Of a stretch of 50,552 bases of DNA, positions 584-49,941 are shown piece after piece (position 1 is the first letter of the stretch; every line of letters starts with the position of its first letter). The notes below the pieces were generated by a model, which was not told the origin of the DNA, did no database searches, and saw nothing but the letters and a program-made list of their open reading frames with translations. A program made the position numbers and the translations under genes. The DNA lies in the sequence record KX828710. The stretch is one strand, 5' to 3'. The DNA comes from Shigella phage SH6.

Positions 584-823
584 ATGAGCAAGATTAAGCA
601 TGACGCCCTGAAAGGTATCTTGATGCGACTAAACCCAGGCGAAGCATTCCAGCTTAACCCCGAGACGTTTGGATTCAATGGTGATTATCGTACAACCTTC
701 GAATTTGTCCGGTATGTAAAGAAAGAGTTTGGATTCGAAGTTATTCACGCAGGTCTTATCAATGGCATTCAGACGTTCATCTTTAAGCCAAATGAGATTC
801 GCTGCTTCACGCTGATGAAATAG
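584..823 (+). CDS. hypothetical protein (79 aa)
   Basis: ORF track; starts 3 nt after previous stop; stop TAG is first triplet of cassette motif. Confidence 0.55.
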   Translation: MSKIKHDALKGILMRLNPGEAFQLNPETFGFNGDYRTTFEFVRYVKKEFGFEVIHAGLINGIQTFIFKPNEIRCFTLMK

Positions 824-863
824 CACTTTTTGTTAAAACCGGATCGGGATAACCTGGTATAGT
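821..863 (+). promoter_or_regulatory. intergenic cassette (palindrome + hairpin + TATAGT) upstream of 895..1089
   Basis: TAGCACTTTTTGTTAAAAC; TGgTATAGT 22 nt after TTGTTA inside hairpin GGGATAAC/GTTATCCC. Confidence 0.5.
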
Positions 864-894
864 TATCCCATCGACAACGAATGAGGAAACGAAG

Positions 895-1089
895 ATGGAA
901 ACGCAAATTGACGTAGTGGTTGTTCAGCGCGACTCAACTCATGAAAAGGGTCTATTCAAGAAAGGAACCGAAATTACAATCGATCTTGAGGATATGGTTG
1001 CGTATCACTCGGGTCTTACCTGGAACGTGGTGCGCGTTGGCAGCGACTACAAACTCAAAGGCTTTAACACTTACTTTGCGGAGGCTTAA
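895..1089 (+). CDS. hypothetical protein (64 aa)
   Basis: ORF track; preceded by cassette and GAGGAAACGAAG RBS. Confidence 0.55.
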   Translation: METQIDVVVVQRDSTHEKGLFKKGTEITIDLEDMVAYHSGLTWNVVRVGSDYKLKGFNTYFAEA

Positions 1090-1091
1090 TC

Positions 1092-1559
1092 ATGACGACC
1101 ATTACCGTATTTCTGGCTAAAGATGAATTGGACGGCGAAATGTCATTCTTCGCGTTCGAGCATAAAACAGGATCGCACTGGCACATGTACACTCATTACA
1201 CGGTCATCGCAATTGAGGCTTACGACGGCGATTTCACTAGCAAGCTGAGTAATTTTATTGAAGCCGTTAAGTCTAGCGAGGGCTGCGAGTGGAAAGAAGA
1301 TCATGAAGTTATGCGAATGTATGAGATGATCAATCCGGTTCGCCTTGAGTCTTTCGAGCTTGGTTCTGATGTGACCATTAAGGTGAGAAATGCGGGTGAG
1401 TTGTTGTCGGGGATGCGTGTGCTGACTGGTTACTCTGGCCGTAAAGTGTGGCGCACTGTATCTAAGATTCGCCAGCGATCGGCAACATGCTACAGCGTAT
1501 TCTTTGAAGATGGCTGGAATATGATGTCAGGAAGTGAAGTGAAGTATCTCACCAAATAG
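1092..1559 (+). CDS. hypothetical protein (155 aa)
   Basis: ORF track; ATGA overlap with upstream gene; ends at cassette motif. Confidence 0.55.
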   Translation: MTTITVFLAKDELDGEMSFFAFEHKTGSHWHMYTHYTVIAIEAYDGDFTSKLSNFIEAVKSSEGCEWKEDHEVMRMYEMINPVRLESFELGSDVTIKVRNAGELLSGMRVLTGYSGRKVWRTVSKIRQRSATCYSVFFEDGWNMMSGSEVKYLTK

Positions 1560-1599
1560 CACGAATTGTTAAAACAGGATCGGGGTATATTGCTATAGT
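1557..1599 (+). promoter_or_regulatory. intergenic cassette upstream of 1638..1868
   Basis: TAGCACGAATTGTTAAAAC; TGcTATAGT at +22; GGGG/CCCC hairpin. Confidence 0.5.
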
Positions 1600-1637
1600 T
1601 ACCCCATTGAAACGAGATACCAATCAGAGGATTCACC

Positions 1638-1868
1638 ATGTCAATCGTCAAGAACCAGCAAGCCATCGATTCAACCAATAACAACCGCTTTGCTATTTTT
1701 ATCACATCGATAGGTCGCCGCTTTGCAGTCAAAGCCGTACCGAGCGGATACAAAACATACATGGAAGATAACGGAAAGTGGGTATGGTGCGAAAACCTTG
1801 CAAACTTCCTGGTCTGGAACGCAGACCTCCAGGGCTTTGACGATATCAGCACTTTAATTGAGGAATAA
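1638..1868 (+). CDS. hypothetical protein (76 aa)
   Basis: ORF track; cassette plus CCAATCAGAGG RBS upstream. Confidence 0.55.
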   Translation: MSIVKNQQAIDSTNNNRFAIFITSIGRRFAVKAVPSGYKTYMEDNGKWVWCENLANFLVWNADLQGFDDISTLIEE

Positions 1869-1874
1869 ATAATC

Positions 1875-2102
1875 ATGCCACGTTACAGCAACCTAACTCA
1901 ACTAACCCGCGTCAACGGGCACATGATCCCGGCAAAATCCACTCACTACGCAATGGGCGCAAAACACGGAGTCTATTTCAAGTGGCGCGGTCAATGGAAC
2001 TTCACAGCTGTGAATAATTTCTACATGCGAGTTCCAGGTGATGACCCGCAATCTGTCGTAGAAAACTCAATCGGTGACAACAAGATCGAGGTACTAAAAT
2101 GA
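1875..2102 (+). CDS. hypothetical protein (75 aa)
   Basis: ORF track; RBS-like AGGAATAAATAATC upstream. Confidence 0.5.
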   Translation: MPRYSNLTQLTRVNGHMIPAKSTHYAMGAKHGVYFKWRGQWNFTAVNNFYMRVPGDDPQSVVENSIGDNKIEVLK

Positions 2103-2209
2103 ACTTTAATACAGTAGCGCTATGGTCTGCCGTCTGGTTCTTCTGCATGGGTCACGTCATGGTCGGCATCGTGGTAATGCTTCTCCTGTGTGCTGGGGCG
2201 TTCGAATGA
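2099..2209 (+). CDS. putative small hydrophobic membrane peptide (36 aa)
   Basis: Own translation MNFNTVALWSAVWFFCMGHVMVGIVVMLLLCAGAFE; ATGA overlap with upstream stop; below the ORF-track size cutoff. Confidence 0.25.
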   Translation: MNFNTVALWSAVWFFCMGHVMVGIVVMLLLCAGAFE

Positions 2210-2379
2210 TGCGCATTCTAATTTGCATGATGGCGGCAGTCGCCATAACTATCCTGGTTGTGTCCGTCTGTGGAGAGGTAAAAGAGCGATGCCATGAAAC
2301 CGGGAACCAGGTTACTACGTTCGTGATGGTCGGCAACGTATTGCTACCAATCACATCAAATGAAATCACTTGCGAATAG
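2206..2379 (+). CDS. putative small membrane protein (57 aa)
   Basis: Internal ATG of track ORF 2122..2379 (MMRILICMMAAVAITILVVSV...), one predicted TM helix; start uncertain. Confidence 0.35.
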   Translation: MMRILICMMAAVAITILVVSVCGEVKERCHETGNQVTTFVMVGNVLLPITSNEITCE

Positions 2380-2388
2380 GATTTAACA

Positions 2389-2580
2389 ATGGCTGATTTT
2401 ATGCACCAAATGATTGCAGTATTCAAAGGCAGCGATGACCATGAAGTAAAAGAGTGCTTTACTGTCAACAAGCCTTATAACGCATCGCTAACCAGCTTCG
2501 GGAATATCTCATTGCTTGATGATAACGGCGACCCCTGGGTATTCGACGAAGACACTGATTGCTTCGAAATTAAAGAATAG
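2389..2580 (+). CDS. hypothetical protein (63 aa)
   Basis: ORF track; ends at cassette motif TAG. Confidence 0.5.
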   Translation: MADFMHQMIAVFKGSDDHEVKECFTVNKPYNASLTSFGNISLLDDNGDPWVFDEDTDCFEIKE

Positions 2581-2620
2581 CACTTTTTGTTAAAACTCAA
2601 TTCCGGGGTTGCGATATAGT
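2578..2620 (+). promoter_or_regulatory. intergenic cassette upstream of 2652..3140
   Basis: TAGCACTTTTTGTTAAAAC; TATAGT at +22 inside GGGGTT/AACCCC hairpin. Confidence 0.5.
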
Positions 2621-2651
2621 AACCCCAACAACAACGAACGAGGACGATATA

Positions 2652-3140
2652 ATGAAAATCAAATTACTTTGCACTGGCGGTTACAAGGGATTTACCAGAG
2701 ATCTGGAAGCAGATCCTATCGTGGTTGACGCGGTGAAGTGTGATTCCAGTACTGGAGGATACCGTGTTAAGGTTGACGACCTGGTAAAAGCTGGCGTGTA
2801 CGATCTGGATTATGGACTTTCGGTTAGCTCGGTAGTCGGTCCGGCAGACTTCAACGAGAAGGACGGAACGATGTTCTTCTTCGAATGGGAAGTCCAGGCA
2901 AATCCTAAGCCGCGCAAGGTTCGACTTCTCAATAATGGCGGCTACCCGATGCGCTCGGGGTATGAGAACCGCACGTTCCCGGTTATCGTTGATTTTGAAG
3001 AAATCACCGCGCACTTAGCTTATATCAACGGTGAACATCTTAATGCTGTTGGATTCGTGGGAGGTATGAATCAAGAGGCGCTATGCTTCTTCCATTGTAA
3101 AGCCGAGCCGTTCGATATTGAGTGCGAGTTAGTCTACTAA
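2652..3140 (+). CDS. hypothetical protein (162 aa)
   Basis: ORF track; cassette upstream. Confidence 0.55.
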   Translation: MKIKLLCTGGYKGFTRDLEADPIVVDAVKCDSSTGGYRVKVDDLVKAGVYDLDYGLSVSSVVGPADFNEKDGTMFFFEWEVQANPKPRKVRLLNNGGYPMRSGYENRTFPVIVDFEEITAHLAYINGEHLNAVGFVGGMNQEALCFFHCKAEPFDIECELVY

Positions 3141-3181
3141 GCACGAATTGTTAAAAGGGGTTTTGGCCTGACTGGTATAAT
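3138..3181 (+). promoter_or_regulatory. intergenic cassette upstream of 3212..3718
   Basis: TAAGCACGAATTGTTAAAAG; TGgTATAAT at +22. Confidence 0.5.
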
Positions 3182-3211
3182 CCCCACATAAACCACTAAG
3201 AGGAAAGCATC

Positions 3212-3718: not shown

Positions 3719-3867
3719 TGGCTGCATGGGTTTTGATTATCTTGATGAGTACCGGGCCGGATCACGTATACATGGAAAGTCAGCAATCATGCAATAAGGC
3801 TAGGGAAGCAATCGCAGAGAACAAGCCGTTCGGATATGAAGTAAAAACGATGTGCGTTAAACGATAG
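3718..3867 (+). CDS. putative small exported/membrane protein (49 aa)
   Basis: Own translation MAAWVLIILMSTGPDHVYMESQQSCNKAREAIAENKPFGYEVKTMCVKR; TAATG overlap; ends exactly at cassette motif. Confidence 0.35.
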   Translation: MAAWVLIILMSTGPDHVYMESQQSCNKAREAIAENKPFGYEVKTMCVKR

Positions 3868-3907
3868 CACGAATTGCTAAACCTTCCGCAAGGCCATTTG
3901 ATATAGT
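3865..3907 (+). promoter_or_regulatory. intergenic cassette upstream of 3948..4154
   Basis: TAGCACGAATTGCTAAACC; TGaTATAGT at +22 in hairpin AAGGCCA/TGGCCTT. Confidence 0.5.
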
Positions 3908-3947
3908 GGCCTTATTGAAGCAAGGCAACCAATCAGAGGAATCAGCT

Positions 3948-5060: not shown

Positions 5061-5067
5061 TTTTAAC

Positions 5068-5100
5068 GGGGAATCGACTCTGAGCGGTTCCCCTTTCTTT
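5068..5100 (+). terminator. rho-independent terminator
   Basis: GGGGAA..TTCCCC hairpin followed by TTTCTTTT. Confidence 0.55.
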
Positions 5101-5113
5101 TGGAGAAAACACT

Positions 5114-5224: not shown

Positions 5225-5427
5225 CAGCAGAAGATGCAGCGCGTGACGCGGTGGAAGGAATGCGCCCAAACACCTCCAGAATCGCACACTACTACAAATC
5301 TGAGGTGTCGGCAGTGCAATTGGTCCACGAAATTTTAAGGCTCCCACAAGTCGATTCAGCGCGCGTGGTGACGTGCTTAAAAAATTATTTTTGCATCACT
5401 ATTAAAACGAATAGCACGAATTGCTAA
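5209..5427 (+). CDS. hypothetical protein (72 aa)
   Basis: ORF track; ends at cassette motif. Confidence 0.45.
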   Translation: MATIMTAEDAARDAVEGMRPNTSRIAHYYKSEVSAVQLVHEILRLPQVDSARVVTCLKNYFCITIKTNSTNC

Positions 5428-5454
5428 AACCTATCAAGGGGAACGCGCTATGAT
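5412..5454 (+). promoter_or_regulatory. intergenic cassette upstream of 5485..5931
   Basis: TAGCACGAATTGCTAAAAC; TATGAT at +22 in GGGGAA/TTCCCC hairpin. Confidence 0.5.
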
Positions 5455-5484
5455 TCCCCTACACTAAAAAACGAGGGAACACTC

Positions 5485-5931
5485 ATGAAACATTTGATTT
5501 GCATTGAAACACCTAACGACCAGTACACTCTTCATGGCCTGGGTGTGTTCAAAGGTCACTACATTACCGCAGGAATTTACGATGCTCGTCGCGGAGATGG
5601 CGATCTAATGATTACGTCAAAAGAAGTAAATCCGTACATTATGCAGAATCTTGGCAATAACGAATATATGGCCTACGGCTGCAACGCGGTGTATAAGCAT
5701 ATCAAGATCCGCAAGCGTGTTGTGCGTGCATTCAAGAAGATTGCAATGAAATACTGGAAAATGAGCAAGAAAGATGCCGGACGTTGGGCGCGCAACGTTG
5801 CAGATTCATACTTCTATCGTAACGGCGAATCCTGCTACTTTCTGATCGATGAACTTATGGAAAACTACGGTGGCGACTTCAGCCAGGATAGCTTTGATGG
5901 CTGGGCCGACTATGAGATCAGTTGCTGGTAA
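5485..5931 (+). CDS. hypothetical protein (148 aa)
   Basis: ORF track; cassette and RBS upstream. Confidence 0.55.
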   Translation: MKHLICIETPNDQYTLHGLGVFKGHYITAGIYDARRGDGDLMITSKEVNPYIMQNLGNNEYMAYGCNAVYKHIKIRKRVVRAFKKIAMKYWKMSKKDAGRWARNVADSYFYRNGESCYFLIDELMENYGGDFSQDSFDGWADYEISCW

Positions 5932-5932
5932 T

Positions 5933-5974
5933 AGCACGAATTGCTAAAACTTGCTCAAGGGCATTTGTTAGAAT
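5933..5974 (+). promoter_or_regulatory. intergenic cassette upstream of 6015..6548
   Basis: TAGCACGAATTGCTAAAAC; TGtTAGAAT at +22 in GGGCATT/AATGCCC hairpin. Confidence 0.5.
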
Positions 5975-6014
5975 GCCCTTCGTTGAGTTAAGCAACCAAT
6001 CAGAGGAATAAATC

Positions 6015-6548
6015 ATGGATAAAATTACCATTTGGGGCCAGACAATCAACCTGTTTCTCGGCACGCGCCGCGTAGCAATCTTTGACTTTGACGGAACACT
6101 TAGCGATGGATCTGGTCGACTTCACCTGCTACCTACAAAGGATTTGCACTTAACTGAAAGCTGGTCCGAGTTTAACCGCGCGGCAATATTTGACAACCCT
6201 ATCCAAAGCACGATCGATGTGATGAACTCTATGTTTGCCGCTGGATATCATGTAATAATTTTAACCGGGCGAAGTGATGAGGTGCGTTACGCATCTGAGT
6301 TATGGCTTAAGCATCACGGCGCTCGATATGATTACTTAGTCATGCGACCGCATACCGACAACCGCAAAGACACGGTAATGAAAGAAGAGGCGGTGCGCGC
6401 GATCGGCATTGATAACATTCTGGCGGCTTGGGATGACTCGCCGCAAATTATTCCATTATTCAGATCGCTTGGGATAACCACTTACGCTGTAGTTGACTAT
6501 GGCGATAACGTTCACAATCATTTAAAATCTCACGGGGTAGATGAATGA
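6015..6548 (+). CDS. HAD-superfamily phosphatase (nucleotidase / polynucleotide 3'-phosphatase-like)
   Basis: HAD motif I FDFDGTL, motif III-like ILTGRS, motif IV AAWDDSP. Confidence 0.6.
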   Translation: MDKITIWGQTINLFLGTRRVAIFDFDGTLSDGSGRLHLLPTKDLHLTESWSEFNRAAIFDNPIQSTIDVMNSMFAAGYHVIILTGRSDEVRYASELWLKHHGARYDYLVMRPHTDNRKDTVMKEEAVRAIGIDNILAAWDDSPQIIPLFRSLGITTYAVVDYGDNVHNHLKSHGVDE

Positions 6549-6656
6549 ACCTATACGAATTTATTGCAGCGCATCCGGTATTAACGGTTATCATTCTGCT
6601 AATCATCAATCACACCATCATCAATGTGGCAAAATTATTTTTAGGGAGATACTGAC

Positions 6657-7229
6657 ATGAAAACAGCTATCATTTTAAACGGTGCGCCTGGCGCGGGAAA
6701 AGACACTATAGGGTGCATCCTGGCTGACACTTACGATCATGTAGCGCTACGCAGCTTTAAAGCTCCAATGTTTGAGATTGCCCGAGCAATCTTGGGTGAG
6801 ACTAATTTCGAGTATTTCATGTTCTTGTATGAGGACCGTCGCTATAAAGAAGAGCCAGCATCAATCCTGAATGGTAAAAGCCCGCGCCAGTTTATGATCT
6901 GGATTAGCGAGGAGGTCATCAAGCCGCAGTTCGGAAATCGCTTCTTCGGTATGCGAGCGGAAAGCAAGGTGAAAGAGTCGCACTCCCTTTCGGTATTTAC
7001 TGACGGTGGATTCAAAGATGAGATCCTACAAATGATTGAGGGTGATATCCAGGTTAAGCTATGTCGAATCCATCGCAACGGTTGCAGCTTTGATAACGAC
7101 AGCCGAGACTATATCTATCTTGACGACATGATCGGGGTTAACGGTTATCAGGAATGTGACTTCTTTTCTGTCGAAGGTCATCCAGAAATTACCGCTCAGC
7201 ACATAGCCGCCACGTTCATCAATAAATAG
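6657..7229 (+). CDS. deoxynucleoside monophosphate kinase-like P-loop kinase
   Basis: Walker A GAPGAGKDT and NGKSP motif, both resembling T4 gp1-type dNMP kinase. Confidence 0.55.
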   Translation: MKTAIILNGAPGAGKDTIGCILADTYDHVALRSFKAPMFEIARAILGETNFEYFMFLYEDRRYKEEPASILNGKSPRQFMIWISEEVIKPQFGNRFFGMRAESKVKESHSLSVFTDGGFKDEILQMIEGDIQVKLCRIHRNGCSFDNDSRDYIYLDDMIGVNGYQECDFFSVEGHPEITAQHIAATFINK

Positions 7230-7269
7230 CACTAATTGCTAAAACGTCGGTGGGGTGATTTGATATAGT
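7227..7269 (+). promoter_or_regulatory. intergenic cassette upstream of 7302..7511
   Basis: TAGCACTAATTGCTAAAAC (perfect TAGCA-N5-TGCTA palindrome); TGaTATAGT at +22. Confidence 0.5.
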
Positions 7270-7301
7270 TACCTCATCGACAACGAAGAGAGAAAATCGA
7301 A

Positions 7302-9006: not shown

Positions 9007-9016
9007 TAAACACTAA

Positions 9017-9037
9017 CCCGCTTCGGCGGGTTTTTTT
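9017..9037 (+). terminator. rho-independent terminator ending early region
   Basis: CCCGCTTCGGCGGG hairpin + TTTTTTT. Confidence 0.7.
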
Positions 9038-9039: not shown

Positions 9040-9076
9040 GCCTGCAATATGGTAAAATAGCACTAAATGTTAAACG
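9040..9076 (+). promoter_or_regulatory. variant cassette / putative promoter of packaging operon
   Basis: TGgTAAAAT extended -10-like element followed by TAGCACTAAATGTTAAAC and terS RBS; just after terminator. Confidence 0.4.
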
Positions 9077-15757: not shown

Positions 15758-15785
15758 TTGACGCTTTAACAAAAAGTGCTATTAT
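15758..15785 (+). promoter_or_regulatory. candidate sigma70 promoter upstream of major capsid gene (overlaps reverse-oriented cassette half-motif)
   Basis: TTGACG-N16-TATTAT; spacer contains TTAACAAAAAGTGCTAT, the reverse complement of the cassette motif. Confidence 0.4.
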
Positions 15786-15788
15786 TGA

Positions 15789-19495: not shown

Positions 19496-19568
19496 GTAAA
19501 ATCATCCTATCAACTTTATTCGATTAACTTTTAACAAAAAGTGCTATCAACCAATCAGGAGAAACATC

Positions 19569-30625: not shown

Positions 30626-30929
30626 GTGTAACAGTTGTCTATCGTGTAACTGGTGATTTGATTGATTCGTCAAATTTCTATCATATATGTTCAAAATTTA
30701 ATCAATATGGATTCTACTTGTAGCTATCTCTGTATTTCTAAGAAAAATCGGTTACAAGTATTACACAGTAGACATCACATAAAAATAGACTTAAGTCATT
30801 GATTCCGTTAATGCTGGTTGTAACTTGAGCGATATAGACACGCTATTACACACCAATTACATGTATCCGATTGACTAAACGCTGTTAATGGCTATAATGG
30901 ATTCATCGTAAACGAAGGAGATAAACGCA

Positions 30930-34914: not shown

Positions 34915-34966
34915 TAAGTAAATAGCACTAATTGCTAAGCACTGATTTTATCATTGTGCTATGAGT
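34915..34966 (-). promoter_or_regulatory. variant cassette upstream of tail fibre gene
   Basis: Minus strand TAGCACAATGATAAAATC then palindrome GTGCTTAGCAATTAGTGCTA; TAAGGAG RBS. Confidence 0.4.
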
Positions 34967-35003: not shown

Positions 35004-35937
35004 AGAGTAGGTCGCTTGCTGAGAATAATTTGGCTTGCATTCCTGAGCGGTATCCTCCGGGGTTCGGTATGATTATTTTTAATTGTCTGTCGTCTGCCAT
35101 GTACAAGGTATCCTTGTCTGAAGGTTCGCACGCTACCCTTACCTCTCGATCACCTTTATACCTGTATGCAACAATTTCGAGGTTTTCAGGGGTGAAGCAG
35201 GCCCATACCTCTTGCTTTGTGTGAAATGCAATATGCTGAGCATCAATCCAGTTAAGGCATAAGTAGATCGCCTTTTCAGTTTTACCAGTCACGGCAACCG
35301 AGCAACTCGTGTATTTCTTCGCATAAAATGACTCTCTTCCTTCTTCATCAATAATCAAAATATTGCAAAACTCATCATCAAGCCCATCCTCGTGCACAAG
35401 TTGACACGGTATAGTGTGAAATACACTCTCTCTTCCATCCTCGCTACGCTTTATACCGACATCGAATGATTCGGTGGGTAGTGACTCAAACACGCTCAAC
35501 GGCGTATTTATACGTTTCTCTGTACGCTCCATAACCTTCATCACCGCCTCATGTTCAGCCATCATGACATTGACACCTGACACCGGAGTCCGGCGCGCTT
35601 TCTTGTTTGCCTTGACGATGTATTCCTGCGGAACCTTTCCGAGAAATCTTCCCAAGATGTTTACGCATTCGCTGTACGGCATACCAGTCAACTTCATCAG
35701 CCAGCCAATACCAGAGTCGTTACCGCATGAGTTGCAGATCGCGCCGCCGTCGCCCGGAGTGTTCAGGTTATCAGTCCAGCGAAAACGGTCTTTACCTCCG
35801 CAGTTGGGGCAAGGTTGGTGCTTCTTATTAAAAACATCATTCGGCAATCCGCAGATTGATTGGAAAGCCTCGCGCCATAACCCCTTCATGTACGGTAAAA
35901 CGTCCTCTTTCTGAAACATCATAAATTCTTCGTTCAC
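35002..35937 (-). CDS. DNA primase (zinc-ribbon type, putative)
   Basis: CPNCGG...CNSCG zinc ribbon near N-terminus; replication module context; GTG start. Confidence 0.55.
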   Translation of the reverse strand: MNEEFMMFQKEDVLPYMKGLWREAFQSICGLPNDVFNKKHQPCPNCGGKDRFRWTDNLNTPGDGGAICNSCGNDSGIGWLMKLTGMPYSECVNILGRFLGKVPQEYIVKANKKARRTPVSGVNVMMAEHEAVMKVMERTEKRINTPLSVFESLPTESFDVGIKRSEDGRESVFHTIPCQLVHEDGLDDEFCNILIIDEEGRESFYAKKYTSCSVAVTGKTEKAIYLCLNWIDAQHIAFHTKQEVWACFTPENLEIVAYRYKGDREVRVACEPSDKDTLYMADDRQLKIIIPNPGGYRSGMQAKLFSASDLL

Positions 35938-35949
35938 TTCCAGATCTCC

Positions 35950-35990
35950 AAAATAAAAAACGCGTAGAAGGATGTTAACCCGCTACGCGT
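35950..35990 (-). terminator. terminator-like hairpin after Cro-like gene (minus strand)
   Basis: ACGCGTAG...CTACGCGT inverted repeat with A-run on plus strand. Confidence 0.45.
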
Positions 35991-35998
35991 CGTTTGTT

Positions 35999-36451
35999 TT
36001 AACTAAAAATGCTATTGGTCGTTCCGATATCTTCCTTCTTCACGACGCGCATAAATTTCTTGTTCTTGCATCGCTTCTCAAGGCACTTGCCGTTACCGTC
36101 AAACTTCAGGTCGAATCGCAACCATGCGGCGCGAAATCCTTTGCACCCCTGTCGGCGGTAAGCACGATGCGCAGCTTCAGCACCTTGCCATGAAATCATA
36201 TTGCGTTCTTTCCAGCCCTGCACCGTCTGATTGCTAACCTTCAGAGCCTTTGCGCAGGCCGCCGGGCCGCCGTAATATTCGATAAGGGCATCAAGTCGCG
36301 CTCGCAGTCCGGCGCGCGTTTCTTCTTTATGAATATAGAAGCCGCAGCGCTGTCGTGGCTTTTTGTCTTTACCGCGTCGTGTTCCGTTGTTACCATTGAT
36401 GTGACGTTTATCGATTTCACCAGTTGACTCCGCGATACGTTGAATACTCAT
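35999..36451 (-). CDS. Cro/YdaS-like HTH DNA-binding protein
   Basis: ACAKALKVSNQTVQGWKERNMISWQGAEAAHRA..LRFD matches YdaS/Cro-type HTH; divergent from helicase gene. Confidence 0.55.
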   Translation of the reverse strand: MSIQRIAESTGEIDKRHINGNNGTRRGKDKKPRQRCGFYIHKEETRAGLRARLDALIEYYGGPAACAKALKVSNQTVQGWKERNMISWQGAEAAHRAYRRQGCKGFRAAWLRFDLKFDGNGKCLEKRCKNKKFMRVVKKEDIGTTNSIFS

Positions 36452-36464
36452 CTTGATTCTCCTA

Positions 36465-36507
36465 TAGCACTTTTTGCTAAAAACGTTTACTGTATGCCGT
36501 GTATTAT
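36465..36507 (+). promoter_or_regulatory. intergenic cassette upstream of helicase gene
   Basis: TAGCACTTTTTGCTAAAAAC; TATTAT at +22 in hairpin CGTTTAC/GTAAACG. Confidence 0.5.
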
Positions 36508-36516
36508 AGCGTAAAC
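36484..36516. promoter_or_regulatory. divergent overlapping -10 elements in hairpin between Cro-like gene and helicase gene
   Basis: Inverted repeat CGTTTAC..GTAAACG with central TATTATA: TATTAT on plus, TATAAT on minus. Confidence 0.45.
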
Positions 36517-36544
36517 GTTACAACGATTCAAAGGATTAATAGAC

Positions 36545-38563: not shown

Positions 38564-38976
38564 TTACAGACAAAGGTGATTATTTAGAATTTTACGAGAG
38601 AGATCCGAGCGACACTCGAAAGGAGGACGCTCATCAGGTGGATTGTGTATCTTGGCTGAAATACAATTTTCCTCACCTTCTATTTTGGCACACCGTCAAT
38701 GAGGGTGAAAAAACAATCACATCGGCGCTCAGGGATGAGCAGTCCGGATTACTTAAAGGTGTGTCAGACTTCGTTATCCTGATTGGTATTAACTCACGCT
38801 ACCCGTTCGCAGCTATCGAACTCAAGCGGGTTAATAAGTCAGGCAAAGGAAAGGCGTCACCAGTCAGTGATAAGCAGAAGGAGTTTCTCCGAAAGGTCCG
38901 AGAACGTGGCGGCTTCCCTGCTGTCGCATACGGATTCGAACAGTTCAAAGTCGCAATTTACGAATTGATGAAATAG
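38560..38976 (+). CDS. VRR-NUC domain nuclease
   Basis: VSDFVILI..AAIELKR..S..Q pattern of VRR-NUC (PD-(D/E)xK). Confidence 0.65.
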   Translation: MITDKGDYLEFYERDPSDTRKEDAHQVDCVSWLKYNFPHLLFWHTVNEGEKTITSALRDEQSGLLKGVSDFVILIGINSRYPFAAIELKRVNKSGKGKASPVSDKQKEFLRKVRERGGFPAVAYGFEQFKVAIYELMK

Positions 38977-39016
38977 CACTTTTTGTTAAAACTGCCGGAA
39001 TGGAATCTGGCATTAT
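38974..39016 (+). promoter_or_regulatory. intergenic cassette upstream of dam
   Basis: TAGCACTTTTTGTTAAAAC; TGgCATTAT at +22; near-identical inverted copy at 48640..48711. Confidence 0.5.
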
Positions 39017-39043
39017 TACCTCACCGAAACGAGAGGACTAAAG

Positions 39044-39757: not shown

Positions 39758-40005
39758 TGAGCGAAAAAATTGTTCCTGTTAAATTAACTGAGCAAGGTTT
39801 ATGGCTTCTTTATCGCGCTACGTGCTGCGAGATTATGGAGCGAAACGGATTGACTCAGGATGTTATTGGTTGCGATCTGTGGGAGTTCACTAGCTCTCTT
39901 GATATGTCTTTCGAAGAGATAAAGAATGAATACATTGAGAATTGGCCCTCAATCATCCAAAAAGACGTAGAAGAACTTTCTTCTGAGATAATCACACAGC
40001 ACTAA
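39754..40005 (+). CDS. hypothetical protein (83 aa)
   Basis: ATG at residue 15 of track ORF 39712..40005; ATGA overlap with dam. Confidence 0.5.
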   Translation: MMSEKIVPVKLTEQGLWLLYRATCCEIMERNGLTQDVIGCDLWEFTSSLDMSFEEIKNEYIENWPSIIQKDVEELSSEIITQH

Positions 40006-40039
40006 TTGCTAAAACTACCCGGCGAAAGTCGGGTATAGT
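39996..40039 (+). promoter_or_regulatory. intergenic cassette upstream of 40072..40281
   Basis: AGCACTAATTGCTAAAAC; TATAGT at +22 in hairpin. Confidence 0.5.
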
Positions 40040-40071
40040 TATTTCATAGAAACAAAATGAGGAATCAGAAG

Positions 40072-40281: not shown

Positions 40282-40531
40282 GCGCGAGGTTTGGGAGCAC
40301 GCAAAGGAATGCGGCATCTCAGACGATATAGCATTAATTGCTAAATACTTTGATATAAAGGATGTTAGCATTATCTCAAACGGCAAGATTTCATTTATGG
40401 AAGATATGCCGAGAAAAATGCACAGAGTTCCAGCAACTCCATCACTTGAGTTTTATCGTGAAGAAGGAAAGAGAATTGAACGAGAACGAAAGGCAACAAA
40501 AAACAGTAAGTCTTCCTGGCTTAAACATTAA
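40259..40531 (+). CDS. hypothetical protein (90 aa)
   Basis: ORF track; overlaps next frame. Confidence 0.45.
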   Translation: MLIKKQGKREVWEHAKECGISDDIALIAKYFDIKDVSIISNGKISFMEDMPRKMHRVPATPSLEFYREEGKRIERERKATKNSKSSWLKH

Positions 40532-40841: not shown

Positions 40842-41993
40842 ATGTCACAAGCTAAAATCACTACCGAGCAACTTATCGAAGAACGTATGAACGGACTTAC
40901 ACTTCGCGAGATCGCGGAAAAGTACGGTATGCACATTCGCACTGTCGAGGCGCGTCACGCAAAACTTGCAAAAGAAGGCCACTTCCACGGTAACGAGCAT
41001 GTTGCTAAAAACGTGCCGGAAGGCTTCATGGTAAAAGGCACTTCTACGATGATTCGCGGCGATGGGACTGAGGTAGTTCGCTGGGTTAAGACCGATCAGG
41101 ACCGTGAGAAGATTGCGGCAATGATGGAAGCTGCGCGTATTGCATTCTGTGAAGACCTGCCGCGAGCAAAGCCAACCGAGCTACTAACCTCGCAAGGGCT
41201 TACGACAGCGATGGGTAAGCTGGCACTCTATCCGGTATTCGATCTCCATATTGGCGCGCTTGCTCATAAGCATGAATGCGGTGAGAACTATTCCACCGAC
41301 GTAGCGGAAAAAGTGCTTAGCGACTTCTTTAATTACGCGATCGATATTGCGCCGAACGCAGAGAAGGCTGTTCTGTTAATCGGCGGCGACTTCCTTCACT
41401 CTGACGGCCTTGACGCTGTTACCCCGGCAAGTGGTCACGTTCTAGATCAGGATTCACGATATGCGAAATTGGTGCATGTAGCGATTCGTTCGGTGCGTCG
41501 CGCCATCGACAAAATGCTTATGAAACACAAAGAAGTCGAGGTCCAAGTTATCGAAGGGAACCACGATCAGTCTGGGATGATTTGGCTGCGAGCTGCAATG
41601 TCGGCATATTATGAAGACGAGCCGCGAGTATTCGTTGACGTTAGTCCTATGATTCTGCATAAGACTCGTTGGGGAAATACCTTGTTGGGATACACTCACG
41701 GGCACACTATGAAAAAGGCAGACACGCGACTTGCAGCAATGGCGGCAGATTTCCGATCAGACTTCGGCGAGAGCAAGTATGTGTATACTCATAGTGGTCA
41801 CTGGCATCACCAGACAATCACTGAGCACTCGCTTGGTATTGATGAAGTACACGGTCAGTTAGGCGCGAAAGACGCATACGCAGCACGCGGAGGGTGGCGC
41901 TCATATCGCCAGGCGGCTGTAATTGTTTACGATAAGCAGTTTGGGGAAATCGGTCGATTCATCTACCGTCCAGAAATGACAGGATCGCACTAA
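40842..41993 (+). CDS. calcineurin-like metallophosphoesterase (Mre11/SbcD-like motifs) with N-terminal HTH
   Basis: Motifs DLHIG, GGDFLH, GNHD, plus His-rich C-terminus; N-terminal LTLREIAEKYGMHIRTVEARHAKL HTH. Confidence 0.6.
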   Translation: MSQAKITTEQLIEERMNGLTLREIAEKYGMHIRTVEARHAKLAKEGHFHGNEHVAKNVPEGFMVKGTSTMIRGDGTEVVRWVKTDQDREKIAAMMEAARIAFCEDLPRAKPTELLTSQGLTTAMGKLALYPVFDLHIGALAHKHECGENYSTDVAEKVLSDFFNYAIDIAPNAEKAVLLIGGDFLHSDGLDAVTPASGHVLDQDSRYAKLVHVAIRSVRRAIDKMLMKHKEVEVQVIEGNHDQSGMIWLRAAMSAYYEDEPRVFVDVSPMILHKTRWGNTLLGYTHGHTMKKADTRLAAMAADFRSDFGESKYVYTHSGHWHHQTITEHSLGIDEVHGQLGAKDAYAARGGWRSYRQAAVIVYDKQFGEIGRFIYRPEMTGSH

Positions 41994-42027
41994 TTGATAA
42001 AAATGCCCGAAGGGATTCGGGTATAGT
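41985..42027 (+). promoter_or_regulatory. intergenic cassette (variant) upstream of 42057..42233
   Basis: GCACTAATTGATAAAAA variant; TATAGT at +22 in CCCGAA/TTCGGG hairpin. Confidence 0.45.
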
Positions 42028-42056
42028 AACCACATCGAAAACAAAGAGGCTATATC

Positions 42057-43684: not shown

Positions 43685-43721
43685 GATGCTTTCCTTCAGG
43701 TCGTTTCGTTTCGATGAAACA

Positions 43722-43765
43722 AATATACCCGATACGAGATCGGGTGTTTTAACAAAAAGTGCTAT
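43722..43765 (-). promoter_or_regulatory. intergenic cassette (minus orientation) upstream of 43469..43684
   Basis: Minus strand ATAGCACTTTTTGTTAAAAC; TATATT at +22; CATCGAAACGA leader. Confidence 0.5.
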
Positions 43766-43873
43766 TTGTATCTTTTGACATGGAGAAGCAACTCCCCCTC
43801 CTGGTCGCAAAGATTATGCTCACTGTCGCCGCTGGCCCTCATTGAAGTGAGCAGCAGGCTCAACAATCCTTGT

Positions 43874-44281: not shown

Positions 44282-44285
44282 ATCA

Positions 44286-45857: not shown

Positions 45858-45884
45858 AATAAACTCCTTAGTTGACGGTGTGAA

Positions 45885-45927
45885 TGATACACCGCCAATG
45901 GTACACGCGTTTTACAAAAAGTGCTAT
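45885..45927 (-). promoter_or_regulatory. intergenic cassette (minus) upstream of 44286..45857
   Basis: Minus strand ATAGCACTTTTTGTAAAAC; TATCAT at +22; AAGGAG RBS. Confidence 0.5.
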
Positions 45928-45930
45928 TGG

Positions 45931-46356
45931 TTATAAGTATTTGGCCTCAAAGGTTGTGCCGTCTGCGATACTAAAACCCACCTCTTCGCGGAATAAGGTC
46001 CAGCGGCATCCGTCCTCATCAAAGATGTAACCAGCTACGCCGCCAAGAGCGCGACCGCTTTCTACCTGGTAACGCTTTCCAACCTTGAATGATTTTTTCA
46101 TCGGGTTGCGATGGTCAAGTCCGGTGCACTTGAGCGTCTTTGTTTTCAACTCGGTGAACTTCGCGAAGAAGATTTCATCAGATCCGTGAATATGTAATTC
46201 ATCATGCTTTTCAAGTTTTAAATACTTCCCGCACTTTAACTTTACTTCGCGAGTACCATCATAGCGCTCACGACCTTTATACAGATTGTTTACTTCGAAT
46301 CCTGTGATTTTGTCTGCGGAAGTGCATTTCAGTTTGATTGATTTCATTGCATTCAC
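45931..46356 (-). CDS. hypothetical protein with two KC..F.V..Y repeats
   Basis: IKLKCTSADKITGFEVNNLY and KTLKCTGL..FKVGKRYQV repeats. Confidence 0.5.
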   Translation of the reverse strand: MNAMKSIKLKCTSADKITGFEVNNLYKGRERYDGTREVKLKCGKYLKLEKHDELHIHGSDEIFFAKFTELKTKTLKCTGLDHRNPMKKSFKVGKRYQVESGRALGGVAGYIFDEDGCRWTLFREEVGFSIADGTTFEAKYL

Positions 46357-46383
46357 TCCTGATTGGTTATCTTGAATAAGGCC

Positions 46384-46427
46384 ACTTTATCAAATGACCT
46401 TACGGCAATATTAACAAATCGTGCTAT
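46384..46427 (-). promoter_or_regulatory. intergenic cassette (minus) upstream of 45931..46356
   Basis: Minus strand ATAGCACGATTTGTTAA; TGaTAAAGT at +22; CCAATCAGGAG RBS. Confidence 0.5.
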
Positions 46428-46637
46428 TTACCAGGGAATGTAATCGTCGTCATTATCATCAATATCATCGCCGGGCATCTCAAAGTTAGGATCGTACTCG
46501 CTTTCAGTATCCATATCCATATCACCAAGAGCCTCATCAAGTGTTATTTCTTTATATGCGACCTTGATGCACCACTCGGCACTAAGCCCGGCATCAAGTG
46601 CTGCAAAATAACGAGTCCAGAAATTATCTTGTTCCAT
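46428..46637 (-). CDS. small highly acidic protein with SSB-tail-like C-terminus
   Basis: 69 aa, C-terminus ..DDIDDNDDDYIPW resembling SSB tip DDDIPF. Confidence 0.5.
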   Translation of the reverse strand: MEQDNFWTRYFAALDAGLSAEWCIKVAYKEITLDEALGDMDMDTESEYDPNFEMPGDDIDDNDDDYIPW

Positions 46638-46640
46638 TAA

Positions 46641-46865: not shown

Positions 46866-46899
46866 TTTTAATTCCTTTATTTCGTTTGGTGTGGGAGTA

Positions 46900-46946
46900 A
46901 TATATATCACTCCCGATCGTATGTCTTTAGCAATTCGTGCTATTAG
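46900..46946 (-). promoter_or_regulatory. intergenic cassette (minus) upstream of 46641..46865
   Basis: Minus strand TAGCACGAATTGCTAAAG; A/T-rich -10-like TATATA at about +22. Confidence 0.45.
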
Positions 46947-47403: not shown

Positions 47404-47418
47404 TATTCCTCCAACCAG

Positions 47419-47983: not shown

Positions 47984-47987
47984 ATAA

Positions 47988-48218
47988 TTACCCTCTGAAA
48001 CTATCAATAGTGTCGTTGATGTATTTCACTTGCGCCTCTACGTCAGACGTGGCGATGTACTGGAATGTATCGTAATCCTCCCGCAAGTCCACAAGCTCGA
48101 CCTTAGTATGATGCTCTTTAAGCCCTCCCATGTGACCGTAATGTGTGCGGTAGACAATGAATCCCTCGTCATTGGCGCGCTGGATTGCTTTCTTTAATCC
48201 AGGGTGTTTGATTGCCAT
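47988..48218 (-). CDS. hypothetical protein (76 aa)
   Basis: ORF track; cassette and CAGGAG RBS upstream. Confidence 0.5.
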   Translation of the reverse strand: MAIKHPGLKKAIQRANDEGFIVYRTHYGHMGGLKEHHTKVELVDLREDYDTFQYIATSDVEAQVKYINDTIDSFRG

Positions 48219-48250
48219 ATGGTGATTCTCCTGATTGGTTGATGTTGTTT

Positions 48251-48296
48251 ACTATACCCCGATTCCCTTCGGGGCGTTTAGCAATTCGTGCTATTA
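48251..48296 (-). promoter_or_regulatory. intergenic cassette (minus) upstream of 47988..48218
   Basis: Minus strand TAGCACGAATTGCTAAAC; TATAGT at +22 in CCCCGAAGGG hairpin. Confidence 0.5.
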
Positions 48297-48629
48297 ATCG
48301 ATATCGAACTCAGCGGCATATGCTTTCTTGAAGCCAGCTTCACGCATGGTGCGCTTGCTGATTTTTCGCGGGAATTTGTAATGACTGTTAGGTTTAACCC
48401 ACCAGAAGCAGGCAGTCTCGCGAACAATTTCATATTTACCGTAACGGGTGAAGATGTCACGTTCATCGTCAGGCTGGTTAACACAGGTAAGGAATTTAGC
48501 TGCTTTGTCTTCAGTTTTGATTTCTTCCCATACGAAAGAATCCATACCGTTAACCTTGCAAGCTACCATGATGTACTCAACGCCGTTTTCGATTTTGATG
48601 ATTTCGTTACCGCGATTTTCGTATTTCAT
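48294..48629 (-). CDS. hypothetical protein (111 aa)
   Basis: Internal ATG of track ORF 48294..48701 with CAGGAG RBS; cassette upstream. Confidence 0.5.
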   Translation of the reverse strand: MKYENRGNEIIKIENGVEYIMVACKVNGMDSFVWEEIKTEDKAAKFLTCVNQPDDERDIFTRYGKYEIVRETACFWWVKPNSHYKFPRKISKRTMREAGFKKAYAAEFDID

Positions 48630-48667
48630 TTCCCTACTCCTGATGTGTATCTCGTTTCGATGAAGTA

Positions 48668-48711
48668 ATAATGCCAGATTCCATTCCGGCAGTTTTAACA
48701 AAAAGTGCTAT
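48668..48711 (-). promoter_or_regulatory. intergenic cassette (minus) upstream of 48294..48629
   Basis: ~60 nt near-identical to plus-strand cassette at 38974..39035. Confidence 0.5.
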
Positions 48712-48897
48712 TTAGAATTTTACTTCCTCAACAAGCTCAACCTTTTTGCACCCCAGGCGATAGGAGTCGCCGAACAACAATAACCCCATAAATTCATCTT
48801 TGGTTATTGACTCCTTACCAACTGTTCTAAGCTCTCCGTTGTGAACTACAGTATCGCCGATCTTGATTTCTGATTTATGCACTAATTTCGTTTTCAT
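48712..48897 (-). CDS. hypothetical protein (61 aa)
   Basis: ORF track; coupled to upstream gene. Confidence 0.45.
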   Translation of the reverse strand: MKTKLVHKSEIKIGDTVVHNGELRTVGKESITKDEFMGLLLFGDSYRLGCKKVELVEEVKF

Positions 48898-48912
48898 TTG
48901 CTAGCCCGTTAA

Positions 48913-49098
48913 TTAAAAGAATGCTACATAGTTTGCAATGCCTTTGGCGTCGTCGTTAGGCATTGCTTTGACAGCAAGGTCGTAACCCGCTTCTACCTTT
49001 TGCTTTGCTGATTCTTCGTTGTACCCACAAATAACCAGAATTTTAACTACGTTTTCTTTGTTCAGAACTTTAAGGTCTTTAGTGATGCGACGTGCCAT
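48913..49098 (-). CDS. hypothetical protein (61 aa)
   Basis: Internal ATG of track ORF 48913..49113; cassette upstream. Confidence 0.45.
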   Translation of the reverse strand: MARRITKDLKVLNKENVVKILVICGYNEESAKQKVEAGYDLAVKAMPNDDAKGIANYVAFF

Positions 49099-49131
49099 TT
49101 TGTTTTTCCTCAATCTCGTTTCGATGAGGTA

Positions 49132-49175
49132 ATTATGCCAAATCGCACCGATCTGGTTTTAACAAAAAGTGCTAT
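49132..49175 (-). promoter_or_regulatory. intergenic cassette (minus) upstream of 48913..49098
   Basis: Minus strand ATAGCACTTTTTGTTAAAAC; CATAAT at +22; CATCGAAACGAGA leader. Confidence 0.5.
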
Positions 49176-49863
49176 TTGCGATCGCTTTGAAAAATCCACG
49201 CGGCGACAGGGATCGTATCAGCTTCGTTTTGGCAGACTTGCCGCCTAACTTGCTGTGCTGCGCAGAGTACCCGTCAGGCAGGTTTACAGGTTTTCTTTCC
49301 GGCATAACGAAGTCGTCAGAGGTCCACAGACAAGTTTTCTTAGGGTAAGCATCGCGCGGCGCAATATACATCGGGAACCAGGGATGAGCGTCATTCTCCG
49401 GAAGATAGCCGCCATACTCCCAGGGATTGAAGGAGTGATTTGGTTTTCTCCATGCAGACGACAGGACGCTCACCGGATTCTCAATGATGTAAGTCACGCC
49501 CAGTGCGTCGCCAATGTTCGCAGCAATCCTTGCGGTGGCAACAGCCTTCTCCTGGAATAACGGATCGCGCTCACGCTTACTTGCAAAGTGACTAGCACCA
49601 CTAACAGCCAGGTCAGTGCATGGAGGAAAGGCCATGATGAAATCCGGCTTGCCATACACACCAGCGATAGCATCACGTTCGAACTTCTCATCAATGAAGA
49701 CGTTCACATACTCAATGTTCGGATGCTCTACCCTGGCGTTATACTTCGCATAATCTCCGTGATCGGCTCCGTCAAAGTTGAAGCACATCACCTTATGACC
49801 TTGCCTTGCCAGTTCATGACCAGCAAGACCGGAACCGTCGAATAGCGACCAAATTAATTTCAT
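49159..49863 (-). CDS. compact DNA (cytosine-5)-methyltransferase-like protein
   Basis: Motif I LFDGSG, motif IV FPPCTD, motif VI IIENPV in canonical order; only 234 aa. Confidence 0.5.
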   Translation of the reverse strand: MKLIWSLFDGSGLAGHELARQGHKVMCFNFDGADHGDYAKYNARVEHPNIEYVNVFIDEKFERDAIAGVYGKPDFIMAFPPCTDLAVSGASHFASKRERDPLFQEKAVATARIAANIGDALGVTYIIENPVSVLSSAWRKPNHSFNPWEYGGYLPENDAHPWFPMYIAPRDAYPKKTCLWTSDDFVMPERKPVNLPDGYSAQHSKLGGKSAKTKLIRSLSPRGFFKAIANSTFC

Positions 49864-49897
49864 CGTGACTCCCTCTTCTGATTGGTTTATGGCCCGA

Positions 49898-49941
49898 ACT
49901 ATACCCTGACAACTTGGTCAAGTCGTTAGCAAAAAATGCTA
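49898..49941 (-). promoter_or_regulatory. intergenic cassette (minus) upstream of C5-MTase-like gene
   Basis: Minus strand TAGCATTTTTTGCTAACGAC (perfect palindrome); TATAGT ~23 nt downstream. Confidence 0.5.

Follow-up and report, generated by a model that had tools for sequence, protein, structure and literature searches.

Intergenic cassettes of Shigella phage SH6: putative extended -10 promoters that probably serve as crossover points

Two kinds of intergenic phage element bear on the DNA analysed here. In phage TLS, German, Kropinski and Misra (2024, PMC11447400) described a 21-nt intergenic repeat (consensus aaATAGCACnnnTTGnTAAAA; 18-21 copies per genome) that is oriented with transcription, lies ~76 nt before start codons and falls into TTT, GAA and AAA subgroups. 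Citing the 2004 T1 genome paper, they noted similar 21-nt repeats in T1, Rtp and Rogue1 and posed the function as an open question; they proposed stoperators, also saw a resemblance to UP elements, and found 'unexpectedly only three' sigma-70-like promoters in their re-annotation, namely P01, P51 and P57 (PMC11447400). The second kind is the promoter-early-stem-loop (PeSL) cassette of the T4-type phages RB49, phi1, PST and nt-1 (Arbiol et al. 2010, PMC2839356; Comeau et al. 2014, PMC4122927). PeSLs are intergenic: the stop codon of the preceding gene marks the 5' end, a Shine-Dalgarno sequence and ATG mark the 3' end, and in between are a sigma-70-type promoter and a stem-loop, which mostly lies between the -35 and -10 elements or overlaps the -10. 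Such units are found chiefly among small accessory genes and provide sites for crossover; promoter activity, terminator activity and minicircles were shown experimentally in T4-type phages (PMC2839356). Here we analysed a stretch of 50,552 nt from Shigella phage SH6 (record KX828710; 'the window' is this full stretch), in which the T1/TLS repeat recurs as what we call the block: the TLS consensus is matched, the TLS list is sequence-identical, and the odd TLS copies DR7 and DR10 have exact counterparts. In SH6 the block heads longer cassettes, which are probably portable expression units for early genes and also crossover points for gene swapping.

The window is a Tunavirus and aligns with phage T1 (AY216660) over 43 kb at ~93% identity (blastn); its first 10 kb matched 328 phage records, all of them T1-like Drexlerviridae, with best identities of 89-92% (megablast). 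T1-like phages (Drexlerviridae) are among the commonest isolated coliphages and Klebsiella phages, and they are both fermentation pests and candidates for phage therapy; to our knowledge, their transcription programme is essentially unmapped. The gene layout is that of T1. Small plus-strand genes (the left arm) come first, then the structural genes and the recombination module; next, the minus strand encodes the tail fibre-like protein, the primase and the regulator, replication and lysis genes follow on the plus strand, and small minus-strand genes form the right arm. To widen the sample, IMG/VR was scanned with the block, which gave 120 loci (~1.08 Mb of T1-like phage DNA) and 472 unique instances; these were aligned gaplessly on the block, and base frequencies were read for each downstream column. 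Promoter positions are numbered relative to the predicted start site (+1), and a sign after a coordinate gives the strand.

The block and its register to a -10 hexamer

The block, aaATAGCAC-N3-TTG(C/T)TAAAAc, is present in 27 copies (15 plus, 12 minus) spanning 821-50146, with ~1 expected by chance. The pattern TAGCA-N5-TGYTA-AAAC at no more than two mismatches had 25 matches against 0.93 expected, a count reached by none of 100 shuffles; two of the 25 are palindromic self-hits on the opposite strand, and a weight-matrix scan with a matrix from relatives added the degenerate copies 34923+, 41985+, 45926- and 49941-. About 20 of the 27 copies belong to complete cassettes, consisting of block, GC-rich hairpin, -10 hexamer, CA start context, leader, Shine-Dalgarno sequence and start codon, and ~7 to incomplete ones; in a gapless print-out, 17-20 copies have the block and a -10-like hexamer in the same column. 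Twenty copies are oriented with transcription at a repeat-like distance from start codons. Three (15781-, 19546- and 34923+) are antisense to flanking genes, as is DR7 in TLS, two (9058+ and 50146-) are the block alone, and one (40329+) lies within an ORF. An earlier note on this DNA had counted at least 22 cassettes ending at 49941, a genuine copy, and the present count bears this out; its statement that they are always oriented with the downstream gene does not hold for the three antisense copies, the two bare blocks and the copy inside an ORF. It had also described each accessory gene as its own cassette-plus-ORF unit, which disagrees with the numbers, since ~20 cassettes serve ~55 non-structural genes; several cassettes head operons or essential replication genes (helicase, Dam).

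Of the 472 instances, 359 (76%) have a -10-like hexamer exactly 22 nt past TTGYTA, and 409 (87%) have one at 21-23 nt; 22 nt is the spacing that the earlier note had read from SH6. Column frequencies were 0.83 for G-14, 0.67 for T-12, 0.87 for A-11, 0.73 for T-10, 0.86 for T-7, 0.66 for C-1 and 0.79 for A+1. An extended -10 promoter is recognised by TGn directly 5' of the hexamer together with A-11 and T-7, and these were found; judged by base frequencies, the fixed columns are the sigma-70 extended -10 signature (G-14, A-11, T-7) and follow the known sigma-70 hierarchy. The same figures hold separately in close relatives and in 55 distant loci, and Vibrio phage Vc1, the most divergent family member examined, has kept exact blocks and whole cassettes.

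A spacer of 22 bp is beyond the range over which sigma-70 touches both promoter elements, and TTGYTA therefore cannot serve as a conventional -35. As an ordinary -35 it was rejected: a 17-bp spacing was found in one of the 472 instances, and the hexamer 17 bp downstream has A at its second base in 8%. Nor does another -35 take its place, as the best match at 16-18 bp spacing reached no more than 3/6 in 93% of instances. The block thus lies at -52 to -31, with a partial dyad, TAGCA-N5-TGCTA, centred near -42. Judged from sequence, this is the geometry of a class II activator site, classically centred at about -41.5, in place of the -35. Sigma-54, sigma-32 and sigma-28 readings of the block or of CCCCAT were dismissed on inspection of their spacings and invariant bases. 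The sigma-54 consensus is TGGCAC-N5-TTGC, with invariant GG and GC 12 bp apart; the block, TAGCAC-N3-TTGC, lacks the GG, and its spacing falls 2 bp short. By the signatures described above, the cassettes are predicted to be extended -10 promoters that lack a -35 and carry a conserved, putative docking element upstream. That the cassettes are promoters is the part of our reading in which we place the highest confidence. A conventional two-hexamer scan called none of them, which accounts for the lack of cassette annotation in GenBank records, the curated T1 record included.

GATC (Dam) sites occur in cassette spacers, with preferred positions at -28 and -19, in 22% of cassettes compared with 15% of shuffles, a difference too weak to interpret. 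The T1-like phages have a Dam methylase gene of their own.

Hairpins, gene boundaries and recombination

Between -33 and +9 (42 nt), the mean folding energy of the 472 instances was -11.3 kcal/mol, against -5.3 kcal/mol for shuffles, and 76% contain a perfect stem of at least 6 bp. In comparison with dinucleotide shuffles, z was negative for 19 of 20 cassettes in the window, and for 13 of these 19 no more than 5 of 200 shuffles matched the observed energy. The stems have 194 distinct 5' arms; across the aligned instances it is the pairing that is conserved, not the sequence. Global column-pair covariation gave an excess of only ~0.1 per pair and is uninformative, as the stems occur in two registers. 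In 107 instances the 3' arm extends to -1 and the -10 is inside the stem; in 60 it extends to -12 and the stem is wholly in the spacer. Rfam and tRNA scans gave no matches. With the 3' arm ending at -1 or -12, a transcript begun at +1 would be without the hairpin, and one entering from upstream would carry it. The design thus appears to hide a terminator-like structure within a promoter. Whether the hairpin acts on transcripts coming from upstream, as analogy with PeSLs suggests, we regard as evenly balanced.

For at least 19 of 27 copies, the upstream gene ends within or at the block, and its stop codon is the TAG of aTAGCAC (eight copies), the TAA of TTGnTAA (six copies) or a TAA just 5' of the block. 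On the other side, the block is followed by +1 after 49 nt, and +1 by the start codon after 20-34 nt that include the Shine-Dalgarno sequence. The ribosome-binding module ACCAATCAGRRG had 18 matches, with 0.78 expected (among them 1619, 3928, 5995, 19550, 32049, 46356-, 48228- and 49875-), and forms the ribosome-binding region both within cassettes and at cassette-less late and recombination genes; it may be a translational enhancer. The earlier note had thus correctly picked out the GC-rich hairpin, the use of the motif's TAG or TAA as the upstream stop, and the type of ribosome-binding sequence. The leader it had called conserved, CATCGAMAACGAGA, proved only loosely so: three matches at no more than two mismatches are not above chance, and the weight matrix shows a weak 'AtcgAAAc'.

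The earlier note had proposed comparing breakpoints among related genomes with cassette positions, and the outcome of this comparison was positive. In 26 close relatives, cassettes, which make up 3.9% of the window sequence, contain 20 of the 52 breakpoint clusters. Two genes absent from T1 (881-1554) sit exactly between cassettes 821 and 1557, and the single T1 cassette at this locus is a hybrid, 821-type in its 5' part and 1557-type in its 3' part, with the crossover in GGATCGGG. Other segments missing from T1 end at cassettes 2578, 3865, 43764 and 49941. Conversely, the three HNH endonuclease genes of T1 are absent from SH6 (6484-6655, 41978-42020 and 45928-45933), and cassettes 41985+ and 45926- mark two of the three insertion points. 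Chimeras are frequent among orthologous cassettes: an orthologue of 2578 has an 821-type hairpin, and one of 1557 has another upstream gene and a TTT triplet instead of GAA. Cassettes 38974+ and 48710- are identical at 61 of 63 positions while lying 10 kb apart, on opposite strands and before unrelated genes. We have good confidence, on these sequence comparisons, that the cassettes act as recombination substrates; copies share ~60 bp, and for that reason they would serve as homologous crossover points at which genes are deleted, inserted or re-paired.

Canonical promoters and the reader of the block

Searching the window for TTGACA-16/18-TATAAT at 10/12 or better gave seven sites, of which five are intergenic and correctly oriented. 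These precede the first left-arm gene (50480+), the recE-like gene (30871+), the next recombination gene (32009+), the major capsid gene (15758+) and the Cro-like regulator gene (36531-); those of the first left-arm gene, the recE-like module and the regulator correspond to P01, P51 and P57 of TLS. The promoters of the first left-arm gene (50480..50552+, TTGACA-18-TAACAT, with a spacer hairpin, leader CATAGACAACGAGG and the ATG at position 6) and of the recE-like gene (30871..30929+, TTGACT-16-TATAAT, leader CATCGtAAACGA) combine a cassette-type leader with a real -35 and have no block. This arrangement speaks for a model with two classes, canonical promoters that are the first to fire and block promoters as the second. 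An extended -10 promoter is able to fire unaided, and factor dependence of the block promoters is therefore not proven.

Two of the canonical promoters involve the block itself. In that of the major capsid gene (15758..15786+, TTGACG-16-TATTAT), the spacer is a reverse-complemented block (copy 15781-), which is possible because the reverse complement of TAGCAC, GTGCTA, supplies TGn plus TA. The same arrangement is conserved in TLS (DR7/T35) and Vibrio phage Vc1, and is also seen at 5729- of L123; a terminator hairpin directly follows the SH6 promoter, and the predicted transcription start falls within its 5' arm. The regulator promoter (minus strand, TTGAAT-17-TATAAT, -35 at 36531) overlaps back to back with the cassette 5' of the helicase gene (36462..36544+; TLS P57/DR11). 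The two have a common -10 region within 36452-36544 (TATTAT on the plus strand, TATAAT on the minus strand), so that the mRNA leader of the regulator itself contains the block, beside the Shine-Dalgarno sequence. The two divergent promoters face each other inside a long inverted repeat, AACGTTTAC...GTAAACGTT, and the arrangement looks like an autoregulatory switch.

We marginally favour the view that a dedicated protein binds the block. For it speak the single-base register to the -10 and the centre at -42, the classic position of a class II activator. Orthologue comparison adds that the block-only copies 34923+, 50146-, 36014- and 9058+ are conserved where the flanks, and even the -10 position, have diverged, and the inverted block in the capsid-promoter spacer has been kept from SH6 to TLS and Vc1. 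The leading candidate, for which the evidence is mixed, is a 150-aa Cro-like regulator (35999-36451, minus strand) that is encoded beside one block and expressed from a canonical promoter. It matches phrog_2856, with a sub-threshold match to P22_Cro, and its predicted structure (mean pLDDT 82) is an all-alpha Cro fold resembling Xfaso1 and N15 Cro. The protein is confined to T1-like phages, with homologues in 823 records. An N-terminal arm predicted to be disordered (residues 5-33, RIAxSTGEIDKRxINGNNGTRRGKDKKxR) is almost invariant, and a C-terminal module with three cysteines (GCKGYRASFCRPDLxFDSNGK...C) is conserved.

Our overall explanation has four layers, and we favour it with reasonable confidence. 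Each complete cassette would be a compact, portable expression unit for non-structural (early-class) genes. Its core would be a host sigma-70 extended -10 promoter (TGn-TATAGT, C-1/A+1) with no usable -35. Upstream, the 21-bp block, observed at -52 to -31, would be a docking site that recruits or regulates RNA polymerase, comparable to a class II activator's site; if the Cro-like regulator reads it, the cassettes would make up a second, factor-dependent tier of early transcription. The hairpin would act in upstream transcripts as an attenuator or 3'-end stabiliser, with local transcripts starting just beyond it, and would insulate neighbouring units. Lastly, the block supplies the upstream gene with stop codons in two frames, and leader and Shine-Dalgarno sequence serve the downstream gene.

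A protein at the block could also repress. The block would then be an operator for early shut-off or a stoperator that stalls elongating polymerase, like those of mycobacteriophage L5, and the promoters would fire alone right after injection, as an extended -10 with a 5/6 hexamer is able to do without a -35. Stoperators were proposed by the TLS authors (PMC11447400). The motif is asymmetric, intergenic and oriented with transcription, block-only copies are conserved, the neighbouring protein has a Cro fold, and inverted blocks in the capsid-promoter spacer and in the regulator leader are placed where binding would repress. However, a roadblock needs no single-base distance to the -10, yet this distance is fixed in 76-87% of the 472 instances, and in a promoter lacking a -35 the stretch from -52 to -31 lies upstream of the core contacts, a classic position for activation and not for occlusion. 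We therefore consider this reading, in which the block would not activate, unlikely.

Direct reading by host RNA polymerase, through UP-like or sigma-region-4 docking, would make the cassettes strong constitutive early promoters that need no extra factor. The block is nearly invariant across subfamilies whose proteins are 45-60% identical, and in a Vibrio phage, as would suit highly conserved host machinery; its TTG is invariant, TTGYTA matches TTGACA at 4/6, and the TLS authors saw a likeness to UP elements (PMC11447400). On the other hand, the 22-bp spacer is outside the two-element contact range of sigma-70, the invariant TAGCAC contains GC, unlike the A/T-tract UP consensus, and block-only copies are conserved away from any -10. 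Moreover, the full-cassette pattern found no host promoters in representative bacterial chromosomes; it gave scattered singletons in unrelated AT-rich genomes and one phage-like contig. On this evidence the polymerase alone is an improbable reader. A contig from a 'Nitratidesulfovibrio liaohensis' assembly, NZ_VSMK01000220.1 (46.7 kb), has five full cassettes and is probably a T1-like phage genome, contaminating or co-assembled.

That block and hairpin form a nut-like antitermination or processing signal in read-through RNA is very unlikely. A linear box followed by a stem-loop does recall lambda boxA/boxB, the copies are on the transcribed strand, and the sense strand folds 1.4 kcal/mol better than the antisense, but the conserved columns past the block are sigma-70 -10 positions at a fixed distance, which an RNA signal would not need, the hairpin floats between two registers with loops that are not conserved, Rfam has no match, and in neither arm is a transcript obvious upstream of the first cassette. 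Most remote is a site for host Lrp, which would couple the phage's early transcription to host physiology: enterobacteria and Vibrio share a conserved Lrp, and 11-14 of 15 positions in the block agree with the E. coli Lrp SELEX consensus YAGHAWATTWTDCTR, quoted in PMC5554404 (mean 11.8 against 6.0 at random; P(>=12) ~9e-4 per site), but the match was found post hoc among many possible consensuses and so is not significant after correction, the degenerate consensus leaves the invariant C-46, C-44 and TAAAA unexplained, no host promoter of cassette design was found, and a single site at -42 differs from the site arrays that Lrp normally uses.

Several observations weigh against the four-layer explanation. 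The full TG of the extended -10 is present in 42% of instances (T-15 in 42-45%), so that many copies carry G-14 alone. The recognition helix of the regulator varies (SNQTV, compared with CCVRL in Vc1) while the block is invariant, which argues against a simple helix-turn-helix readout, and near-invariance of the block across hosts could mean direct recognition by conserved host machinery. The excess of breakpoints at cassettes over tight gene junctions is real but modest, about two-fold; neighbour linkage was broken in 23% of the observations on block junctions, compared with 11% for tight junctions, counts that are not phylogenetically independent. The cassette hairpins have no T-tail, and none was called an intrinsic terminator in a scan of 1-10 kb; a role as rho-independent terminators is not supported, copy 36014- alone having a T-run. 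Orthologous stems showed no clear compensatory bias (single changes, 33 kept and 72 broken; double changes, 7 and 4), and the folding advantage of the sense strand over the antisense is only 1.4 kcal/mol. Given the missing T-tail, the lack of compensatory bias and the small strand difference, the attenuator or stabiliser role is a proposal, with support from the PeSL stem-loop experiments. The searchable literature yielded no mapping of transcript 5' or 3' ends for any Drexlerviridae, so that promoter and attenuator activity are deduced from sequence.

A bolder version of the preferred explanation is speculative and probably goes too far. Here the cassettes would be a family-wide promoter class in which host sigma-70 polymerase sits on an extended -10 and a dedicated phage factor recruits it through the 21-bp block at -42; the early programme would have two tiers, three canonical promoters and then ~20 block promoters, with inverted sites repressing the capsid and regulator genes and the hairpin terminating upstream transcripts only. 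The factor could be the regulator's invariant N-terminal arm or a new protein that repositions sigma region 4.

Cassettes along the genome and comparison with known systems

The first complete cassette of the left arm is at 818..894+ (block 821, hairpin GGGATAAC/GTTATCCC around TGgTATAGT, leader, ATG 895, z -2.3), followed by one at 1554..1637+ (block 1557, hairpin GGGGTA/TACCCC, TGcTATAGT, ribosome-binding module ACCAATCAGAGG, ATG 1638). The complete cassettes at 2575..2651+ (hairpin GGGGTTGC/GTAACCCC, ATG 2652, z -5.2) and 3862..3947+ (hairpin AAGGCCATT/AGTGGCCTT, TGaTATAGT, again ACCAATCAGAGG, ATG 3948, z -4.0) flank another at 3136..3211+, whose block is degenerate (AAGCAC) and which has TGgTATAAT and ATG 3212. 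At 5409..5484+ the hairpin of the complete cassette is AGGGGAA/TTCCCCT and the -10 is TATGAT (ATG 5485); that at 5929..6014+ precedes the polynucleotide kinase gene (hairpin AAGGGCATT/AATGCCCTT, ATG 6015, z -4.4); and that at 7224..7301+, with a 15-bp stem of -22.4 kcal/mol (z -6.1), heads ~7 small genes.

Further complete cassettes stand on the plus strand. The one 5' of the Dam methylase gene (38971..39043+) has its hairpin wholly in the spacer; at 39994..40071+ the spacer hairpin ACCCGGC-GAAA-GTCGGGT ends at T-12 (z -3.7); and at 41982..42056+, where an HNH gene is inserted in T1, the block is degenerate (TCGCAC...TTGATA). On the minus strand, the complete cassette at 43685..43767- has a spacer hairpin and forms the right boundary of a segment missing from T1. 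The cassette 5' of the 523-aa ATPase gene (45858..45929-) has a 1-nt deletion in its block, with a T1 HNH gene inserted directly upstream. Complete cassettes follow at 46348..46429- (12-bp stem, -10 TAAAGT, ACCAATCAGGAG, z -3.5), 46866..46945- (hairpin GGGAGTGAT/ATTACTCCC, z -4.2), 48219..48296- (spacer hairpin, also ACCAATCAGGAG), 48630..48713- (the near-copy of Dam cassette 38974+) and 49099..49177-; the first cassette of the right arm, 49864..49944-, lies 5' of a methyltransferase-like gene and has its -10 shifted by 1 nt. A 1.9-kb segment of this arm that is missing from T1 (47985-49900) holds three cassette-plus-ORF units, one of them with the cassette resembling that of the Dam gene, and encodes the methyltransferase-like protein (phrog_757) and a DUF7421 protein. 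Apart from these two proteins, the genes behind canonical promoters and first cassettes gave no informative family matches.

Among the incomplete copies, the block at 9055..9076+ stands alone right after a terminator (9015-9032), ~20 nt before the start of the small terminase gene, and that at 19525..19549-, also alone, is antisense to the flanking late genes and abuts the ribosome-binding site of the tape-measure chaperone gene. The block at 34920..34941+ is antisense to its minus-strand neighbours; it is conserved in eight orthologues, its -10 position is not. At 35938..36017-, 5' of the primase GTG at 35937, copy 36014- has the cassette layout with a true intrinsic terminator (stem and T-run) enclosing the -10 position, as in its TLS counterpart DR10/T57, and the copy within a coding sequence (40326..40347+) has no convincing -10. 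The last copy, the bare block 50146- (50125..50149-), is kept in orthologues with diverged flanks. It lies in a non-coding control region of ~600 bp between the divergent arms (49945-50552, continuing to position 5), which contains an extremely AT-rich palindromic tract (50225-50300), three copies of TTGATTGCGA and a 33-nt inverted repeat (50307-50339 with 50422-50454); the annotated T1 genome ends map to ~50028. This region may be an origin or pac region.

Annotation pipelines find about three promoters per genome, a number that reading the block as part of a promoter would multiply about seven-fold. As the upstream half of ~20 extended -10 promoters, the block would explain early-gene expression, and the 21-base repeat that T1-like phage researchers have listed as unexplained would gain a testable meaning. 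Compact, insulated cassettes could also be reused in phage engineering.

The elements are not categorically new, as the repeat and PeSL-type elements were both known. The TLS account covers the 21-mer only, not as a promoter part, and has no fixed -10, hairpin or recombination. New here are the extended -10 in fixed register, the CA start context, the two-register hairpin, the stop codons in the block and the evidence for recombination. So are the two tiers of promoters, kept from one subfamily to another, and the occurrence of inverted blocks in late promoters. Like the stoperators of mycobacteriophage L5, the blocks are many short asymmetric sites with one orientation to transcription in short intergenic gaps; unlike them, the blocks are locked to a -10 and belong to virulent phages, whereas L5 stoperators have no fixed promoter register and act in lysogeny. 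The likeness to class II activator promoters (CRP and FNR at -41.5, Mu Mor and C, lambda CII) lies in a poor or absent -35, a good or extended -10, and a partial-dyad site of ~15-20 bp centred near -42 in fixed register. Here, in contrast, the flanks of the block and the conservation of its half-sites are asymmetric, a density of ~20 copies per 50 kb far exceeds that of any host regulon, and the Cro-like regulator is the only candidate activator.

PeSLs remain the closest parallel, and our literature search found no paper that connects T1-like phages with cassettes of PeSL type. PeSLs and SH6 cassettes alike are intergenic and 60-100 bp long, bounded by a stop codon and by Shine-Dalgarno sequence and ATG, with an embedded stem-loop, and both cluster among small accessory genes and have indel crossovers inside the units. 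The resemblance, suggested in the earlier note, thus stands for the stop codon, the stem-loop, the translation start and the breakpoints. It does not extend to the promoter: PeSLs have consensus -35 and -10 elements and an AT-rich upstream tract, whereas the SH6 cassettes have no -35 at 16-18 bp and carry a GC-containing invariant block 5 bp further upstream. PeSL activities are experimental, and the T1-like cassettes are known from their sequences, which are unrelated to those of PeSLs and occur in a siphovirus family. The comparison extends the idea of a regulatory cassette that is also a recombination module from T4-type myoviruses to an unrelated siphovirus family, and suggests that portable promoter-hairpin units evolved convergently.

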